A DNA stretch of 64,000 nt from Escherichia coli (GTDB lineage: Bacteria; Pseudomonadota; Gammaproteobacteria; Enterobacterales; Enterobacteriaceae): NCBI RefSeq assembly GCF_046105845.1, contig NZ_CP151004.1; one strand, given 5' to 3'. Below the pieces are notes generated by a model. The model worked only from the letters and a program-made list of their open reading frames with translations. It did not search any database and was not told where the DNA came from. Both the position numbers and the translations under genes were made by a program. Numbering within the stretch: the first letter of the stretch is position 1; every line of letters begins with the position of its first letter. Of the stretch, positions 4,751 to 41,845 are shown piece after piece.

Positions 4751-5240
4751 AAAAATATCTGGAAAGTAGATCGCAGAAAATAAAAGAACCTGCTGGTGAG
4801 GCAGGTTCTTTTATTTACTACTTTGATGTTAAGTTACTGATAGTGCAACATGGCATCTCAACGAACGAATTATAACCACCGCTGGACCGTGTTGCAATTA
4901 AGATAATGAGATTTATAATCCTGACTGTTGGGAAGTTGCGCCGGATCGAACCCATTTCAAGTCCTGGCTACCGGACGGGTGGTGCCGCAGGTAGTGCTCT
5001 GATCCGGAGTGCAACATGGCGACTCAACATACGTAAATCAGTATCGACAGGCAGTGTAAGGGTAAGGTGCTGGTGTTGCGCTCCTTAATAAGGAGAGCGG
5101 ATGGACACGCTGACACAAAAGTTAACCGTGCTCATTGCCGTACTGGAGCTATTAGTGGCTCTGTTACGGTTGATTGATTTGTTGAAGTAATGGGCAAATT
5201 GAAACGCAACTAAGGGGGAAAACCGCTTCCCCCTTTAATA
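4751..5240 (+). repeat. Type I toxin-antitoxin repeat unit 2 (zor/orz-like)
   Basis: Tandem copy of unit 1 with scattered substitutions; terminal hairpin overlaps the 3' end of yehK. Confidence 0.7.
5101..5190 (+). CDS. 29-aa hydrophobic type I toxin peptide MDTLTQKLTVLIAVLELLVALLRLIDLLK (ZorO/ZorP-like)
   Basis: Same ribosome-binding site and frame as copy 1; one Q/L difference at residue 4. Confidence 0.6.
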   Translation: MDTLTQKLTVLIAVLELLVALLRLIDLLK

Positions 5241-5563
5241 AAGTAATATTCTATTAGTTGGTTGAATATATTCTGTAGTTTACGATTAAAAATTGCTATT
5301 ACAGTTTCAGGTGATTCACCTCGTAATTTCCGCTCATCAATACACTCATCTCTTATATAAATCAACGCATCATTTATTAGCGGGTCAGCATCTTCTCGAT
5401 CACGTTGATGAAATGTTGGACGTAGCCGGAATCGCTCCAGTCGATAGACAGAACCTGTAAATAATTCAGAGCGTTTATGGATCTCAAGCCTGAAGGAAAA
5501 CGGCTCTTCAGGTACAGGGGCCTCATAATCGTAAATAGTGATCAGCTCTTTTTGCACGATCAT
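5210..5563 (-). CDS. yehK: Small hypothetical protein; last 8 codons lie inside the repeat hairpin
   Basis: ORF 117 aa between yehI and the repeats; position matches K-12 yehK; exact start and C-terminus uncertain. Confidence 0.55.
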   Translation of the reverse strand: MIVQKELITIYDYEAPVPEEPFSFRLEIHKRSELFTGSVYRLERFRLRPTFHQRDREDADPLINDALIYIRDECIDERKLRGESPETVIAIFNRKLQNIFNQLIEYYFIKGGSGFPP

Positions 5564-5623
5564 CGCTTTTCCCGGTGGCAGGTCGTGTTAATAACGAGCA
5601 GTCGCATCACTGCCCGCTGTGTT

Positions 5624-8600
5624 TTAATGGAAAATAACGTCGGGTGCGCTTAACGCTTCACTCAAATCAAACACATCAAGTTCGGCAAAAGTGACAGATT
5701 TATTGTCACGGTATACACAAAGAGAACGGAAGCTCATTAGCGCTTTGCTATCAACATTGTAGCGGTTAAAACTGGATGAAAACTTAAGGACCAGCCGGTA
5801 CTCGCCCAGGCCATAGACAAATGCGTCCTCATAGCCTGACTCCCAGCCTTTGTATCGCATTCCCATAAGCTGCCCAACGGTAGCGGATTTACCTTCCCAG
5901 CGAGTCAGGCTGTTACTGGTTGACTCGTCAGGCGTGAGCAGCACCGTGCGGCGCGACAACTGGCGAAAAGGCGGCATAATTTCGTAATCGGCAAAAAGCT
6001 GTGCAAATTCACTGCGCATTTCTGCTGTCATTTCTAACGGGTGGGCAATGCCAATCAGAGCATCCGCAGGAAGGTCAATGGGCTCATCCTGCGCATTGCA
6101 GAACTCCCCCTCAGCGGCCACACGAAAGGCGTTGAGTAAACGACGCGGTTCATTTGCCGGATAAACACCCCATATTAATCGCTGAGTAACCAGGCGGGTA
6201 AAGGGATGATTAACAAACAGAGAACGAAAATCTGCCAGCGACCAGCGTCGGATGGTGCGCAGGGCCGTTTCAAGACGCGGGAGCAGGTTTTTGCTCACCT
6301 GAGTAGCATCTTTTTTTAGCCCTTTTAGTCGTGCCAGTGCCTCGGGCGCTTTCAGTTGATCGTCATCGGCGCGCAACCGTGGAACGCTTTTCTGGCGAAC
6401 GTTTTGCTGATCAAAGATAACCGGGTTGAGGTTTTCATCGAAGCGAACGGTAAACTGCCGGGGACCAAAATCAAAACTCAACGCCTGCGGATCATCAAGG
6501 CCCAGTGTTGGGACTAATCTGTCCGCTAACTCTTCCTGGCTTAGCCCGCGATTTTCTGCGACTACCTGAAGAAATTCCGCCGCGTTATCACGTAAGGGGC
6601 GGGATTTCGCCCGTTGCGATATATGATGCAGCTGCATCAGCGCCATATCATTATTCATCAGGGTAAGGATGTTCAGGCCACTGACAGCACGGGCAGATTT
6701 GCCTTCTTGTGGCCAGGCGAGGATCTGTGTCGTCAGATCCCGAGCCGTGCTTTCGTCACCAAAGAGACTTAACGCCAGAAATGCCCAGTTGTCTTTTGCA
6801 GGGGCACCAGCTTGTTGCCAGGCGGTGAAGAGATCCCAGGCAAAAGCTGCGAGCGTTTGTGGTTGGCAAAACGTTTTCAGTTGTTCCAGCCCGCTATAAA
6901 AACGTCCCCCCTGGGTAAAGCGCAGCATTTCGCCGATAATTTCCAGAGCGTCATCGGTAACAGGTTGATTATTAGTGATAAGGCGCGGCCTGGACCACAT
7001 TTGCGGATGCCAGAAATCAGGGGCTTTTGGCATGCGCGCCGGGTAAATTTCCAGCGGGTTCTGGGTAAGTATTTTTTCCAGGGCTGGCCACACATCAGCA
7101 CGATCCCAGCGGTTTGCCACGGTTTGTAGTAATTCGCCATGTCCCTGTTCGTAAAGTAAACGCAGGGCAAATAATGCAGCTTCGCTATTATCGCTGGATT
7201 TAATGAAGACAAGAGGGATAAGTGCAGTAGCCGTATGTTCCGGCCATTGTAAAATCCACTGGCGGGCCAGATCACGCTGCGCCGCGAAACGTCGCCAGAC
7301 GCGGGCAACGGGCAGGGCCAGTTCGGTTGCGCCGAAATTTAAAATTAACGGAAATGTTTCTTTTGGACGATGTGAAAAAGCCAACAGCAGACCTGGTAGA
7401 GCATCCAATCCGAAGATACTGAGAAAATAGTCCTCACCCGCAGACAGATGCTTTTTCTCATTGATACGTAGCCAGAAAGTCAAAGCCATCTCACGCGGCA
7501 ACTGCGCCAATAAATACAGGTTCCAGATACTCTTTTCCCGACGATAGCGTGAGTAGCTGTCATTTTCCCATATGTTAATTAACACTTCTACGTGACCGCT
7601 GCGAAGCGCCTGTTCTGCTAATTGAGCTTCCGGGGAGCTCCAGCCATTCATGATCTCTTCAACCCGCCCTGGGTAGTAATGCCACTGAACAATGAGTGAA
7701 TTGCGTGCAGCATCCAGTTTTCCGGGGAGTATATAATTCAAAAACAGCCATACATCATCTCCAAAACCCAGCTCCTGTAGTACAACTCGTCCACTTTTAT
7801 GTTCCATGCGTTCCGCAAGAGATTCCGTGCTGAAATAACGGGCAGACTCAGTGGCGGCAAGCCTCTCTCGTTCGCCTGGTTGCCAGTAAACTTGCGGCGT
7901 TAATTCGAACGGTGCCAAATCAAGACGTGGAACTGTCATTTTTTTCTTACTACGCCACGGTGGTGAAACGAGGATTTCAGGCAGATTGCTGTTATCGGTG
8001 CCATCAATAACCGGTTTGGGCGGTGCCGATAAATAACTATTCAGCACTGCCCGGGCTTGAGTACTTAACCACGGCATCACTTCTGCTGCCAGTTGTGGCT
8101 GCGATGCCATCAGCGTTTGTAACAGTGTACGCCAGTATTCATCTCGAGCTTTTTGCTGTGCAGGCAGCTTTTTGTCTTCGATGATTGGATAACCAGGGCG
8201 CGCAGGTGGTTCTTTTAGCGCCAGAAGCTCTGCCAGTGCGGCAAGCGTCGCATGGGGGAAATTTTTACTGTATTTAGCTACACGTTGCAGGCTGGGTTTG
8301 TTTTTATCAGCAACTAACAGCAGGGTGCGGATGACCTGCGGATGGTTAATTTGTACCAGCAGACTGCCGCAATCTTCTTTATGGGCATACATTGCCAGGC
8401 GTGGAACGGCTGCCAGTCCTTGTTCGCGCAAAAGGGCAGCGCAGGCCGCGTAGCCGAAGTGGTTTTCATGCGACATGTAGCTGGCTTCCCGATCGCTAAA
8501 TATATCCTGGCTCCAGTAGCGTTCGAGTTTTTTCACCGCTCTGGGGTCATTAGCAACAACTTTTAACCACTCCTTAGAATGAAAATGAGTCCGCGGGCAT

Positions 8601-24176: not shown

Positions 24177-24965
24177 ATGCAAGTCGACCTGCTGAGTTCC
24201 GCGCAATCTGCGCACGCGTTACACCTTTTTCACCAACATTCCCCTCTTGTGCACTGCATGACCAACGATGTGGTGCAAACCTTTACTGCCAATACCTTGC
24301 TGGCGCTCGGTGCATCGCCAGCGATGGTTATCGAAACCGAAGAGGCCAGTCAGTTTGCGGCTATCGCCAGTGCGTTGCTGATTAACGTTGGCACGCTGAC
24401 GCAGCCACGCGCACAGGCGATGCGTGCCGCCGTTGAACAGGCAAAACGCTCTCAAACACCCTGGACGCTTGATCCAGTAGCGGTGGGTGCACTCGACTAT
24501 CGCCGCCGTTTTTGTCTGGAACTTCTGTCTCATAAGCCAACCGCCATACGTGGTAATGCTTCGGAAATCATGGCATTAGCTGGCATTGCTAATGGCGGAC
24601 GGGGAGTGGATACCACTGACGCCGCAGCTAATGCGATACCCGCTGCACAAACACTGGCACGGGAAACTGGCGCAATCGTCGTGGTCACAGGCGAGGTGGA
24701 TTATGTTACCGATGGTCATTGCACCGTTGGCATTCACGGTGGCGATCCGCTAATGACCAAAGTGGTAGGAACTGGCTGTGCATTATCGGCGGTTGTCGCT
24801 GCCTGTTGTGCGTTACCAGGCGATACGCTGGAAAATATCGCATCTGCCTGTCACTGGATGAAACAAGCCGGAGAACGCGCAGTCGCCAGAAGCGAGGGGC
24901 CAGGCAGTTTTGTTCCACATTTCCTTGATGCGCTCTGGCAATTGACGCAGGAGGTGCAGGCGTGA
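24177..24965 (+). CDS. thiM: Hydroxyethylthiazole kinase
   Basis: 262 aa; follows the thi-box. Confidence 0.95.
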
Positions 24966-29383: not shown

Positions 29384-30657
29384 TTAACTTCCCCTTGTGT
29401 CAACGCAATATCGCGATCATCGACCTTGATAGCCGTAATTTCGTTGTCGGATTCGCGGAAAAAAATCATGAACAGCACGGCGATAATGGCAATCATCACC
29501 GCGCCAAAAGTCCACATCCCGGACCAGTTGAAAGTCAGTCCGTTTACCGGTTCCTGATAAGCGAACATCTTTTCCATCATCACACCGCCAAGACGATAGC
29601 CGAGCAAACTGCCGAAGCCCTGGCAGCAGAGCGTGATCAGCCCCTGCGCAGCGGTACGCATATGCACGGGGGCTTTTTTATCGACATAGATGTAAGCGGT
29701 AACGTAGTAAAAATCGTAACTTACTCCATGCAGCAAAATGCCGAGGAACAGTAACGCGTAGGTGAAATATTCATCCGCACTACCGTAAATAAAGAAGCCA
29801 TAGCGGATCGCAGCGGTGACCAGACCAAGCAACAATACCTTTTTGATACCAAAGCGTTTAGTGAAAAACGGCAATGCCAGCATAAAGAAGATTTCAGAGA
29901 ACTGGCCGAGCGTCATCCAGCCGGTGGCGTTTTTCATGCCGACTTCTGTCAGATAACCGTTGGCAAAGATGTAATAGAACGCCAGTGGCATCGCAAACAG
30001 GAATGAACAGAAGAAAAAGACGAGGAAGTTTTTATCGCGCAGCAGGATCAGCGCATCCAGGCCGAGCATGACTTTAATGTCCATTTTGCCGGTGCTTTTT
30101 GGCGGCGTGTCGGGCAGGAAAAACGCAAACACACCGAGCAGAGCAGAACTTCCGGCGGTAATCAGCAGCGGGATGTTAGTCGGAGAGATATCGGCATAAC
30201 CCAGCATTTGCGGCAAAAATCCACATGCCAGACCGGAGGCAATCCAGCCGATAGTGCCCATCACACGAATGCGTGGGAAATCACGCTCCACATCCGGCAC
30301 GTTGGCAAAAGCGATACTGTTAGTCAGCGCAATGGTCGGCATATAGGTTAGCGAGTAGGCCAGCAGTAACGGGAAGAACCCGGCAAAAGTGGTCTGTTGC
30401 GCAGCGAAATACATCAGCGCCGCACCAGCGAACATCAATACCGCCAGCACTTTCTGCGCCGAGAAAAAGCGGTCAGTGATGGAGCCAACCAGAATTGGCG
30501 ACAGGATCGCCGCAATGGCGGTACAGGCATACGACCAGCCAATTTCTCCGGCACTAAAACCGCTTTTACTTAACCACAACCACAATGGCACAAACCACGC
30601 GCCCCAGATAAACCATTCAACAAACATCATGAACGACAGCTTTGCTGTTGTTTTCAT
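29380..30657 (-). CDS. yegT: Nucleoside:H+ symporter-family transporter (NupG/XapB-like MFS)
   Basis: 425 aa, multi-pass membrane protein; first gene of yegTUV. Confidence 0.85.
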   Translation of the reverse strand: MKTTAKLSFMMFVEWFIWGAWFVPLWLWLSKSGFSAGEIGWSYACTAIAAILSPILVGSITDRFFSAQKVLAVLMFAGAALMYFAAQQTTFAGFFPLLLAYSLTYMPTIALTNSIAFANVPDVERDFPRIRVMGTIGWIASGLACGFLPQMLGYADISPTNIPLLITAGSSALLGVFAFFLPDTPPKSTGKMDIKVMLGLDALILLRDKNFLVFFFCSFLFAMPLAFYYIFANGYLTEVGMKNATGWMTLGQFSEIFFMLALPFFTKRFGIKKVLLLGLVTAAIRYGFFIYGSADEYFTYALLFLGILLHGVSYDFYYVTAYIYVDKKAPVHMRTAAQGLITLCCQGFGSLLGYRLGGVMMEKMFAYQEPVNGLTFNWSGMWTFGAVMIAIIAVLFMIFFRESDNEITAIKVDDRDIALTQGEVK

Positions 30658-37662: not shown

Positions 37663-38442
37663 ATGACGATGAATTCATTCGAGCGAAGGAATAAGATCAT
37701 CCAATTAGTGAATGAACAGGGAACCGTGCTTGTTCAGGATCTGGCGGGAGTATTTGCTGCCTCGGAAGCGACAATCCGTGCCGATTTGCGCTTTCTTGAA
37801 CAAAAAGGCGTGGTTACGCGCTTTCATGGCGGTGCGGCGAAAATAATGTCCGGTAATAGTGAAACCGAGACCCAGGAAGTCGGGTTTAAAGAGCGATTTC
37901 AGCTCGCCAGTGCGCCAAAAAACAGAATAGCGCAGGCGGCAGTCAAAATGATCCACGAAGGGATGACCGTTATTCTCGACAGCGGAAGTACGACAATGCT
38001 TATCGCCGAAGGTTTAATGACCGCCAAAAATATCACGGTGATTACCAACAGTCTCCCGGCGGCGTTTGCCCTTTCCGAAAATAAAGACATTACTCTGGTC
38101 GTCTGTGGTGGGACCGTCCGCCATAAAACACGCTCGATGCATGGTTCCATTGCCGAGCGTTCATTGCAGGATATTAATGCCGATTTAATGTTTGTGGGTG
38201 CTGATGGTATTGATGCGGTTAATGGTATTACGACCTTTAATGAAGGCTATTCGATTAGCGGGGCGATGGTCACAGCCGCAAATAAAGTGATTGCCGTTCT
38301 CGATTCATCGAAATTTAATCGTCGCGGTTTTAATCAGGTACTGCCAATCGAAAAAATCGACATTATTATTACCGACGATGCTGTGTCAGAGGTGGATAAA
38401 CTGGCATTGCAGAAGACACGGGTGAAATTAATTACGGTGTAG
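37663..38442 (+). CDS. gatR: DeoR-family repressor of the gat operon, uninterrupted
   Basis: 259-aa continuous ORF; no insertion sequence. Confidence 0.9.
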   Translation: MTMNSFERRNKIIQLVNEQGTVLVQDLAGVFAASEATIRADLRFLEQKGVVTRFHGGAAKIMSGNSETETQEVGFKERFQLASAPKNRIAQAAVKMIHEGMTVILDSGSTTMLIAEGLMTAKNITVITNSLPAAFALSENKDITLVVCGGTVRHKTRSMHGSIAERSLQDINADLMFVGADGIDAVNGITTFNEGYSISGAMVTAANKVIAVLDSSKFNRRGFNQVLPIEKIDIIITDDAVSEVDKLALQKTRVKLITV

Positions 38443-38523: not shown

Positions 38524-39423
38524 TTAACGCAACAATGGGCAATCTGGTGGTAATCGACAACGCAACGCCGCCGGAAGTATTTCAATATGAAAGTTTTGTC
38601 CGCTCAACGGTTCGCCATCAAGATTAAAAGTGATTTCGTGTGGGGCTTGTATATCAAACCACGACGAAGCGCCTTCGATAATATTCGGGTTATCTTCGTC
38701 AGATTTTAATGTTGATACGAGAGCCGGAAGAATTTCATCGCCGGTAAAAATGCGCAGTTGCAGCAAGCCATCGTTAATTAACGCGTTCGGGCACAATTGC
38801 TGACCGCCACCGGCCTGACGCCCGTTACCAATACCAATGACCAGGGCGTCACCTTGCCAGTGAAAGTTTTCACCGCGGATCTCACAACGGTCCGGTTGCA
38901 GAGTATCCATGCGCATTAAGCCATGAATGATGTAAGAGACGCCACCCAGCGCGGCTTTTAATTTTTCCGGCGTTTCTGTGGTAATACGCGTCCCAAATCC
39001 GCCTGTCGCCATATTAATAAAACAGGTTTGTTTGTTGACCTGCGCCATATCTATCGCAATGGCGTCACCGGCAATTGCCAGTTTCAGCGCCTTATCCAGT
39101 GCCTCAGGAATCCCTACACTGGTGGCAAAATCATTGGCGGTTCCTAATGGTAAAATTCCCAGCGCGGGTATGTCATCCCCCTCACACTGAATCAACGCCG
39201 TAGAAACTTCATTAATGGTGCCATCGCCACCACCGGCAATCACCGTTGCGACGCCCAACTTCCGGGCCTCCTCTACATATCGTGCGGCATCGCCTTTCTC
39301 CCAGGTGACCCGCACATGGATCGTCATTCCTTCCTCACGCAACAGCATAATTGCTTCGCGCAAGGGTAGATTGTCAGTACTTTTGCCATTAAGAATCAGT
39401 AAGCTGGCGGGAAAATCTGCCAT
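38524..39423 (-). CDS. yegS: Lipid kinase (DAG-kinase-like fold)
   Basis: 299 aa; GGDGT motif. Confidence 0.9.
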
Positions 39424-39836
39424 GATCGTATGTGCCTTTATGATTGGTCTGTAGATAGTGTAGAGCAGAAAAGAAAAGGTGGAGTCAGAACAGGATGAAA
39501 GTCTGAGGATAAAAAGTCAGTTCAAGTATGGGGGATTCAGTGGTTACCACCAGGAGCTTGCAATGGGAACCGCGAATATTAACGGTAGCCACCGATAAAT
39601 TTCAAAAAAGAGCATATGCCTAATATTCAACCAAACAGTGGCATCTTAAATATACTATTCCAAATATATTAAAGCCCCATGGAGTTACTTGGAAAGGGCC
39701 TTCATGTCTGTAATTCCTACTTATGTAGGAAATGTTGTACAGAACATTTATTATAATCCTATTCAAATATAATAATCAGCCATTATTATATTTAAACACT
39801 AGAGAGTGTCGTTGGTATTTAATGGGGGAAGGTGAG

Positions 39837-40154
39837 ATGAAAAAGATAGCTGCTATATCATTAATTAGTATTTTTATTATGTCTGGTTGTGCTGTGCATA
39901 ATGATGAGACAAGTATCGGTAAATTTGGTCTTGCATATAAAAGTAATATTCAGCGTAAACTCGATAACCAATACTACACCGAAGCCGAAGCTTCTTTAGC
40001 CAGGGGCAGAATATCTGGTGCAGAAAATATAGTAAAAAATGATGCAGCCCATTTCTGTGTTACTCAGGGCAAAAAAATGCAGATAGTTGACCTGAAGACA
40101 GAAGGTGCAGGATTACATGGCGTCGCTCGTCTGACATTCAAATGTGGAGAGTGA
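39837..40154 (+). CDS. yegR: Small lipoprotein
   Basis: 105 aa from MKKIAAISLISIFIMSGC (lipobox). Confidence 0.7.
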   Translation: MKKIAAISLISIFIMSGCAVHNDETSIGKFGLAYKSNIQRKLDNQYYTEAEASLARGRISGAENIVKNDAAHFCVTQGKKMQIVDLKTEGAGLHGVARLTFKCGE

Positions 40155-40312
40155 GAATATTTTTTGGTAAGCGTCAAACATGCGCGTTCTGGTTGTGCTT
40201 AGCCGGAACCAGTGCGAGCACGATGCCGTTACGTGAAAGGCATCGTGCTATGAAGGGAGATTCTATCGATGTGGTCAATGGAAGACGGTGACCAGGGATA
40301 GGGCTTATGCAT

Positions 40313-40339
40313 AAAAAATAAGCCCGTGTAAGGGAGATT
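40313..40339. other. Bacteriophage P2 attachment core sequence (unoccupied att site)
   Basis: Exact match to the 27-nt core aaaaaataagcccgtgtaagggagatt as recalled; no flanking prophage genes. Confidence 0.6.
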
Positions 40340-40483
40340 ACACAGGCTAAGGAGGTGGTTCCTGGTACAGCTAGCATTTTATGGGTTATGTTTTTCAGCG
40401 AAACGGATGATAACCTTAATAAATGCAGCTGTATGTGATCGGTTTCTAAGAATTTTCCATCCGGGAAAAATAATCGAAATTAA

Positions 40484-41845
40484 TCACTTACCGTGGGGGT
40501 TACGCGTGGTTTCCCCGGAGAAATTACGCATCAGCAGCGCGTAATTTAGCTCAAGATCCTGCGGCACCGGGATCCACACAGTATAACCATCGCCCGGTGC
40601 GACCGGCATTGCTTCGCCTTTGGCGTTTTCCATCTGCTCAAGGGTAAAGTTAATGTTGCCATGCGGCGTCATCAGCTCAAGGCTGTCGCCAACGGAGAAT
40701 TTATTTTTCACCGCTACCGCCGCGAGGTCGCCCTTGCGCTCACCGGTAAACTCACCAACAAACTGCTGGCGGTCAGAAACTGAATAACCGTATTCGTAGT
40801 TCTGATAATCATCGTGAGTATGACGACGCAGGAAACCTTCGGTATAGCCACGATGCGCCAGACCTTCCAGAGTTTCCAGCAGGCTGGTATCGAACGGTTT
40901 GCCCGCAGCGGCGTCATCGATAGCTTTACGATAAACCTGCGCGGTGCGTGCGCAATAGTAGAAAGATTTGGTACGGCCTTCGATTTTCAGCGAATGCACG
41001 CCCATTTTGGTCAGGCGTTCAACGTGGGCGATGGCACGCAGATCTTTCGAGTTCATGATGTAAGTGCCGTGCTCATCTTCAAACGCGGTCATATACTCGC
41101 CCGGACGCTGGGCTTCTTCGATCATAAACACTTTGTCGGTCGGCGCGCCGATACCCAGCGTCGGCTCAACATTTTGCACCGGAATCGGCTCGTACTTATG
41201 TACGATGTTGCCAACATCATCTTCTTTCCCTTCCTGGACGTTGTACTCCCAGCGGCAGGCGTTGGTGCAGGTGCCCTGGTTCGGGTCGCGCTTGTTGATA
41301 TAGCCAGAGAGCAGGCAGCGACCGGAGTAGGCCATGCACAGCGCGCCGTGAACGAAGATTTCGATCTCCATATCTGGCACCTGATTGCGGATCTCTTCAA
41401 TCTCTTCCAGCGACAGCTCGCGAGAGAGGATCACGCGGGTCAGGCCCATTTGCTGCCAGAATTTCACCGTCGCCCAGTTCACGGCGTTAGCCTGTACCGA
41501 GAGATGGATTGGCATTTCAGGGAAGTGCTCACGCACCAGCATAATCAGCCCTGGATCAGACATAATCAGCGCATCCGGCCCCATTTCCACCACCGGTTTC
41601 AGGTCACGGATAAAGGTTTTCAGCTTGGCGTTGTGCGGTGCAATGTTGACCACGACATAAAACTTTTTCCCCAGCGCATGGGCTTCATTAATGCCGAGCT
41701 GAAGATTTTCGTGGTTGAATTCGTTGTTGCGCACACGCAGGGAGTAACGCGGCTGGCCCGCATAAACAGCATCTGCGCCATAAGCGAAAGCGTAACGCAT
41801 ATTTTTCAGCGTTCCCGCCGGGGAAAGGAGTTCCGGTTTAAACAT
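40484..41845 (-). CDS. yegQ: Peptidase U32-family protein (tRNA U34 hydroxylation factor)
   Basis: 453 aa. Confidence 0.9.
   Translation of the reverse strand: MFKPELLSPAGTLKNMRYAFAYGADAVYAGQPRYSLRVRNNEFNHENLQLGINEAHALGKKFYVVVNIAPHNAKLKTFIRDLKPVVEMGPDALIMSDPGLIMLVREHFPEMPIHLSVQANAVNWATVKFWQQMGLTRVILSRELSLEEIEEIRNQVPDMEIEIFVHGALCMAYSGRCLLSGYINKRDPNQGTCTNACRWEYNVQEGKEDDVGNIVHKYEPIPVQNVEPTLGIGAPTDKVFMIEEAQRPGEYMTAFEDEHGTYIMNSKDLRAIAHVERLTKMGVHSLKIEGRTKSFYYCARTAQVYRKAIDDAAAGKPFDTSLLETLEGLAHRGYTEGFLRRHTHDDYQNYEYGYSVSDRQQFVGEFTGERKGDLAAVAVKNKFSVGDSLELMTPHGNINFTLEQMENAKGEAMPVAPGDGYTVWIPVPQDLELNYALLMRNFSGETTRNPHGK

Follow-up and report, generated by a model that had tools for sequence, protein, structure and literature searches.

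The locus between yegR and yegQ in Escherichia coli raises the question of whether a short sequence found there is a vacant attachment site for phage P2 and, if so, how the site came to be empty. The stretch of E. coli DNA analysed here, hereafter the window, is 64,000 nucleotides long. A sequence-only reading of it had proposed that a 27-nt sequence in the interval matches the P2 attachment core, that the corresponding interval of K-12 holds a cryptic P2 remnant (ogrK and a gene D fragment), and that the roughly 330 bp separating the two genes here mark an empty or cleanly excised P2 integration site. The best explanation, in which high confidence can be placed on the strength of sequence comparisons, is that positions 40313-40339 constitute the unoccupied attB of P2 and its close relatives, situated within the small RNA gene cyaR, with what would be an older layer of relics beside it. 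The strain carries neither a prophage nor a K-12-type remnant at the site. An unoccupied P2 attB at cyaR is in itself already known and ordinary, since cyaR is listed in the literature as an insertion site of P2-type phages; what may be new is confined to the adjoining yegR islet, which has the appearance of an ancient relic of P2 type.

The core match held when the 27-mer was aligned to P2 attP, all of its positions being identical to the segment that the P2 record (NC_001895/AF063097) annotates as 'attP' (24356-24382), with 24356-24383 given there as the Int-binding 'attP core'. A BLAST search of positions 40280-40420 against 50,697 phage records extended the identity to 28 of 28 positions (40312-40339 against NC_001895 24355-24382). 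The P2 annotation places an Int P arm (24293-24320) and an IHF site (24324-24357) on the ogr side of the core, and a Cox site and the P' arm on the int side. The core is the sole match in the 64-kb window when up to three mismatches are allowed, and none of 100 shuffled sequences contained one; tblastx at E<=1e-3 and DNA comparison detected no further P2 homology in the window. The estimate of about 330 bp between yegR and yegQ was accurate, the interval measuring 329 bp (40155-40483) from the end of the YegR stop codon at 40154 to the end of the yegQ/trhP open reading frame at 40484. The bacterial flanks are contiguous over a single core, which is the unoccupied state, and the junction is 100% identical to that of many strains. 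The genes of the region follow in the order gatR, yegS, yegR, the 329-bp gap, yegQ/trhP, yegP and baeR (Table 1); gatR is annotated as a split pseudogene in K-12 MG1655, as against the intact frame of the window.

Table 1. Coordinates in the window of the genes, RNA elements and phage-like segments around the attachment core
Feature	Position	Strand	Basis
gatR	37663-38442	+	Intact ORF, 259 aa
yegS (lipid kinase), ancestral left neighbour of cyaR	38524..39423	-	299-aa ORF; K-12 annotation
Ancestral bacterial arm …GTCAGAACAGGATGAAAGTC…	39470..39509 (motif 39484-39503)	+	Alignment with sister lineages
yegR islet	39511-40312, about 800 bp	n/a	Missing at this position in sister Escherichia lineages
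Putative decayed att core (old attL core) AAAAAGTCAGTTCAAGTATGGGGGATT	39511..39537	+	19/27 to P2 core
Putative P'-side (Cox-binding side) relic of a P2-type attP	39538..39585	+	Continues from old core
yegR	39837..40154	+	ORF, 105 aa (MKKIAAISL…), predicted lipoprotein
Stretch resembling the cos-proximal right end of phage 186 (P2-like)	40158..40215	+	BLAST and local score
11-bp inverted repeat agcacgatgcc...ggcatcgtgct	40218..40250	+	Read from sequence
Putative P2-type P-arm relic (Int arm-binding site)	40266..40295	+	Against P2 24293-24322, 87% over 31 columns
P2 attachment core (attB core) AAAAAATAAGCCCGTGTAAGGGAGATT	40313..40339	+	27/27 identity to P2 NC_001895 24356-24382
cyaR (ryeE) sRNA gene	40316..40401, to 40313 with U-tail	-	Rfam RF00112
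CyaR intrinsic terminator hairpin, 11-bp stem, 6-nt loop, then U-run	40321..40348	-	Terminator scan and MFE fold
Candidate CRP-like site TTAGAAACCGATCACA upstream of cyaR	40434..40449	-	Consensus only, 2 mismatches to TGTGA-N6-TCACA
yegQ/trhP, right neighbour of cyaR	40484..41845	-	453-aa ORF; RefSeq names; K-12 trhP

The site is presumably the P2 attB named locI in E. coli C, which was reportedly characterised by Yu, Bertani and Haggard-Ljungquist in 1989 and by Barreiro and Haggard-Ljungquist in 1992. Like the site in the window, locI is a simple unoccupied attB with a 27-nt core identical to that of attP, its neighbourhood is the same as that of the ogr-D' remnant of K-12, and nothing essential is known to distinguish the two.

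The placing of the site between yegR and yegQ was right as to the interval, but overlooked that the core forms the terminator, and with it the 3' end, of a gene. The interval contains CyaR/RyeE, identified by Rfam over all 85 model positions (1-85) with a score of 100.7 bits (gathering threshold 47, E=1.4e-20), and K-12 annotates cyaR at the homologous position beside trhP/yegQ. The att core comprises the last 27 nt of cyaR, namely the loop and the 3' half of the stem of its terminator and the U-tail; thus, a location in cyaR is the better description of the site. This terminator is the only terminator-like site recognised by the terminator scan in 39400-40550, and the same hairpin is obtained in the minimum free energy fold. 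The Rfam scan of 39500-41000 reported no RNA other than CyaR; a snoRNA match at E=0.24 was set aside as chance. Upstream of cyaR, the candidate CRP-like site at 40449-40434, judged from its sequence, agrees with the CRP control already established for CyaR (PMC3333887). Among the matches listed for a 171-nt junction search of RefSeq E. coli genomes, no annotated feature lies under the cyaR/att junction, so that both the small RNA and the attachment site are invisible to routine annotation.

The 3' ends of RNA genes are common phage targets, and the terminator and the att core are therefore complementary descriptions of the same sequence and not alternatives. In integration at the 3' ends of tRNA, tmRNA and small RNA genes, as by P4-type elements at tRNA-Leu, elements at ssrA and P2-type elements at rybB, the identity block likewise spans the 3' terminus of a gene for a structured RNA, which survives because the element likewise brings a replacement 3' end. 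The cyaR site is unlike the tRNA targets in that the target is the terminator of an Hfq-dependent small RNA and the identity block is short, at 27 nt.

The comparison with K-12 bore out the statement that its interval holds phage remains, and showed that it is not identically short. Between trhP and yegR, MG1655 is annotated with cyaR, the 'cryptic prophage PR-X' (2167183-2167811), ogrK and the pseudogene yegZ, and the interval is 630 bp longer than that of the window. The insert consists of 641 nt that are 96.7% identical to P2 23742-24382 and cover the 3' end of gene D, ogr, a terminator, the P arm, the IHF site and the core. Read in the orientation of the window, K-12 agrees with the window up to nucleotide 18 of the core, continues with the P2-like 641 nt and then agrees with the window again, its left junction being a truncated core, …AAAAAAATAAGCCCGTGTA|gcagag…. 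On this alignment, the K-12 remnant reads as a truncated attL core fused to D' together with an intact attR. It has in common with the window locus the site, the orientation and the right junction (P arm, core, cyaR); its 630 bp of extra DNA and second core are absent from the window.

Occupied versions of the site have their boundaries at the same nucleotides. The record ON470606 runs from gatR through yegS and yegR to the core and on into int, C and cox, and is thus an attL junction within a phage record, while 'Phage TP' (AY639599) carries ogr, the P arm, the core, cyaR and yegQ, an attR junction like that of K-12. Among 80 IMG/VR prophage contigs that start at yegR, 79 have the core at the same distance, followed by a P' arm of P2 type. 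In occupied genomes, homology to the empty site breaks at the core, whose 27 nt are present at both junctions (query 1-610 and 584-1171). Archer et al. (2011) give 'cyaR RNA' in their Table 2 as a P2-type insertion site, occupied by Wphi2 in strain W, by ogr-D' in K-12 and by P2*B in B and vacant in Crooks, and list rybB too among such sites (PMC3032704). The notion that the match is nothing but the CyaR terminator, its P2 similarity being a coincidence or a database artefact, deserves practically no credence, for although the 27-mer lies wholly within cyaR, and related terminators with one to three mismatches stand beside cyaR in many genera without a phage, P2 annotates precisely these 27 nt as attP, a P2 remnant lies at this place in K-12, and prophages sit at precisely this point between two copies of the core, junctions of occupied sites by which this reading is refuted.

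Integration of P2 proceeds by the assembly of Int and IHF on the complex attP, the capture of the simple attB and the exchange of strands within the core, and Cox, together with Int and IHF, reverses the process and restores attB exactly; the original biochemistry is said to be the work of Yu and Haggard-Ljungquist. At the present locus, the P2 integrase, a tyrosine recombinase, would with the host IHF pair the 27-nt core of attP with this attB and exchange strands inside the identity block, and the prophage would then lie between yegR and cyaR. The core copy brought in beside ogr would replace the CyaR terminator, so that cyaR would be regenerated and the small RNA gene would remain intact in the lysogen. 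Excision by Int and Cox would recreate exactly the sequence seen here. A strain with such a standard free P2 site should be lysogenisable by P2-type phages at cyaR, in which respect it differs from K-12.

The DNA to the left of the core suggests that only modern prophages are absent from the site, since this flank itself appears to be an older, decayed insertion of P2 type. The ancestral flank was sought by a search of a single genome from each species for the conserved seed of CyaR, which covered at least 120 loci. The islet (approximately 39510-40312) is absent from three sister lineages, 'E. coli' E69 (CP089930), Escherichia sp. E1V33 and E. whittamii, the first of which is only 87% identical to the window in the yegS region. 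In these lineages the homology extending from yegS breaks off at about 39509 and is regained at 40313, the base with which the core opens (in E. whittamii at 40309), there is no yegR, and the yegS flank runs directly into the core and cyaR. In the outgroup Escherichia sp. ESNIH1, yegS also adjoins cyaR. The ancestral yegS-cyaR junction was found in none of 5426 complete E. coli genomes, and the islet is therefore fixed in E. coli. Loss of the islet by the sister lineages, in place of a gain by E. coli, is conceivable in principle. In FDAARGOS_1077 (NZ_CP068155.1 4039914-4040621), a shortened islet leaves only about 700 bp from the yegS flank to the core.

The boundaries of the islet coincide with the break in homology to the sister lineages, and it is bounded by direct repeats, a decayed core on the left (19 of 27 positions) and the present core on the right (27 of 27). 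The old core, AAAAAGTCAGTTCAAGTATGGGGGATT, follows directly on the shared yegS-proximal sequence, at the point where the sister Escherichia have the cyaR terminator and core. Taken alone, its score was reached by 8 of 500 shuffles; extended over 39510-39585 and compared with P2 24355-24432, the alignment scored 24 against 9.9+-1.6 for shuffled sequences, a value reached in none of 1000. At the other end, the putative P-arm relic is collinear with the core and is the second-best match in the whole comparison of P2 with the window. Its local score is 38 against 15.3+-2.1 for shuffles (0 of 500), and the alignment pairs window positions 40266-40300, tcgatgtggtcaatgGAAGACGgtgaccag, with P2 tcgatgtggtcaatgTGTGGACgtgaccag. 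Of the two Int repeats, the first, ATGTGGTCAA, is preserved in full and the other is decayed, and about 16 nt of the IHF region are absent between the relic and the core.

Between these ends, the GC content of the islet falls to 0.30-0.39 (39600-40100), the flanks having about 0.5. The segment immediately after yegR resembles the right end of phage 186: the BLAST match to 186 30517-30565 is 77.6% identical, with E=0.6 against the whole database, and the local score of 40158-40215 against the right end (30517-30574) is 28, compared with 9.5+-1.6 for shuffles (0 of 1000). Only 186 was matched there, 40155-40265 having no significant similarity to either end of P2, and 39586-39836 none to the right end of P2 or of 186. 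The inverted repeat at 40218-40250 lies just upstream of the P-arm relic, is without a T-run and was not called by the terminator scan; in P2 the terminator of ogr and the F operon occupies the matching position. No recognisable phage protein gene was detected in the islet by tblastx against P2. The islet thus comprises, in order, the old core and the P' relic, AT-rich DNA with yegR, the 186-like right end, the hairpin, the P-arm relic and the intact core. This succession corresponds to the map of a P2-type prophage from which the early and late genes have been removed. The phage arms stand in the order and orientation expected, P' after attL and P before attR, and all of them scored above every shuffle.

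A 10-mer between the hairpin and the P-arm relic, AAGGGAGATT at 40254-40263, is a copy of the last 10 nt of the core and was considered as a third partial core. It was rejected, since K-12 and UTI89 have AAGGAGGATT there and the exact match is an allele of this strain that probably arose by chance. UTI89 and other E. coli carry an extra 171 bp right after the yegR stop codon (positions 730-905 of the UTI89 locus, insertion point approximately 40158), an AT-rich segment with a 41-codon open reading frame. It has no similarity to the ends of 186 and P2, and thus adds no further phage relic.

These features can be accommodated by an earlier P2/186-like prophage that would have entered the same site and decayed to about 800 bp including yegR. 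Its attL core would have decayed, and its attR core would have been kept intact because it doubles as the CyaR terminator and is presumably under selection in that capacity. The surviving attR core would now serve as attB for new phages; that is, the attB of today is probably the attR of an ancient P2-type prophage relic fixed in E. coli. We consider it likely, with somewhat less assurance than attaches to the vacant attB itself, that in the 'empty' site the right end of an ancient P2/186-like prophage has survived, with yegR as leftover cargo and attR retained as the CyaR terminator through repeated rounds of integration and decay.

The homology between the left flank (40266-40295) and the P arm, which is clear, could also have arisen in the reverse direction, if the attB were pristine and never occupied and an ancestor of P2 had taken up host DNA, as aberrant excision is able to carry flanking host DNA into a phage. 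Such host-to-phage transfer appears very improbable, since the P arm is a functional part of attP with annotated Int arm sites and an IHF site, and is common to P2-like elements beside cyaR in Citrobacter, Enterobacter and Buttiauxella. Further, the flank in the sister Escherichia and in outgroups is without a P arm and has a different, widely conserved sequence in its place. In E. coli the second Int repeat is degenerate and 16 nt of the IHF region are deleted, as expected of a decaying copy, and 800 bp to the left there is another, decayed core accompanied by a P' relic. A P2-like P arm beside cyaR (score >=25, median 8) was present in 10 of the 119 species representatives listed; the flank in the window, with a score of 22, is intermediate. 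The P-arm and IHF sequences so found belong to Citrobacter, Enterobacter, Buttiauxella and Escherichia, and each core matches the local variant of the terminator. The occurrence of P2-like arms at cyaR across genera indicates that cyaR is a family-wide target of P2-like elements.

Returning to the vacant attB and to how common the empty state is, a 171-nt probe found the contiguous junction in 4207 of 5426 complete E. coli genomes (77.5%), many at 100% identity, and a 1171-nt probe found the junction with at most about 1 kb inserted in 4564 of the same genomes. The difference between the two probes corresponds to about 357 genomes with a remnant of K-12 size; two rows of the 1171-nt search name ogrK and 'late control D family protein'. 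About 860 genomes (about 16%) carry a large insert that interrupts the match at query positions 584-610, precisely the 27 nt of the core. The empty state is thus the commonest in E. coli and, being that of the majority, needs no special history in this strain. Over the 1171-bp stretch 39730-40900, the nearest complete E. coli genome is 99.0% identical to the window; the 171-bp junction is 100% identical in many strains.

The description of the site as empty or cleanly excised stands in that no P2 prophage is present; the two histories it names are indistinguishable by sequence, because excision restores attB exactly. The sequence is accordingly compatible with a recent occupation followed by clean excision by Int and Cox, and the proportion of genomes with a large insert makes turnover at the site plausible. 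Nothing in the sequence separates such an event from a long vacancy, however, the junction is identical to that of many unrelated strains, and the empty state is that of the majority, so that a recent excision in this strain is distinctly doubtful.

The origin of yegR itself bears on the reading of the islet as an ancient prophage. YegR belongs to Pfam PF27694, a family almost confined to E. coli and Shigella, and is named 'protein/lipoprotein YegR' in RefSeq; an NCBIfam search returned nothing meaningful beyond the lipoprotein signal peptide. In phage collections, YegR occurs in the host flanks of prophage calls only, at 96-100% identity and mostly at contig ends, and such matches give no independent support for a phage origin. 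It also has a PHROG match (phrog_21109), which may rest on host flanks. Two more distant homologues were seen: one of 51% identity (8001-8318) from Enterobacter sp. BIDMC 29, where the surroundings are rich in IS and Tn3 sequences and include an omptin gene, the other of 47% identity (8001-8321) as a single gene beside a UDG gene (Pfam PF03167) in another bacterium. Their contexts suggest that yegR moves between contexts, and fit a mobile orphan gene without providing a link to phages. No paper treating yegR as prophage-derived was found in the literature search, outside which lay the primary papers on P2 attachment.

It is conceivable, therefore, that yegR and its AT-rich surroundings were inserted without a phage, by another mobile element or by illegitimate recombination, and that only the att-like pieces are phage-derived, as the 47-51% identical homologues in non-phage contexts and the lack of any deposited phage genome with yegR other than as host flank would allow. 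We regard this as unlikely, since the islet begins on the left at the old core and stops on the right at the present one, a 186-like right-end segment follows directly after yegR, and the TO region beside the right end is a known cargo slot in P2-like phages, as for cdt-V (PMC6823313).

The reading of yegR as cargo of an ancient prophage has a parallel in E. albertii NBRC 107761, in which about 3.3 kb separate yegS from cyaR (locus 4930-8400) and are bounded by well-preserved attL and attR of P2 type. The insert encodes cdtB, which scores 363.9 bits in NCBIfam (cut-off 189) and lies between open reading frames of 258 aa and 181 aa in the positions and of the size of CdtA and CdtC. The putative P' relic of the window (39538-39585) aligns also to the well-preserved attL of this remnant. 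The two are alike in that the E. albertii element occupies the same site, is bounded by att sequences and has kept cargo without phage structural genes; it differs from the yegR islet in having far better preserved arms, in carrying cdt and not yegR, and in its length of about 3.3 kb against about 0.8 kb. By this analogy, the E. albertii remnant offers the best model for the origin of the yegR islet, representing the same decay at an earlier stage.

The succession proposed for the locus would begin with the yegR islet, continue with the ogr-D' remnant of K-12 and end with modern prophages. Selection would act on the core on the cyaR side, leaving the other copy and the body of the prophage free to decay, and nested relics would accumulate at the locus as a result. 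More generally, where an att core lies within an essential element of an RNA gene, selection may keep one copy while the rest of the prophage decays, and the same spot may then gather nested relics and orphan genes such as yegR. The relic reading would give a likely origin for the uncharacterised E. coli lipoprotein gene yegR and, if true, would be of modest interest.

The sequence that formed the original flank of cyaR is itself widespread. The flank motif …GTCAGAACAGGATGAAAGTC… was found beside cyaR also in Enterobacter, Cedecea, Atlantibacter and others among the loci listed, and a motif of the form G[TC][AC]AGAAC..G..TGAA, for example GTCAGAACAGGATGAAAG, occurs in numerous genera of enterobacteria just past the cyaR terminator. 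In E. coli, this motif has been moved 800 bp away from cyaR by the yegR islet and now lies at 39484-39503, where it may be part of the yegS promoter region.
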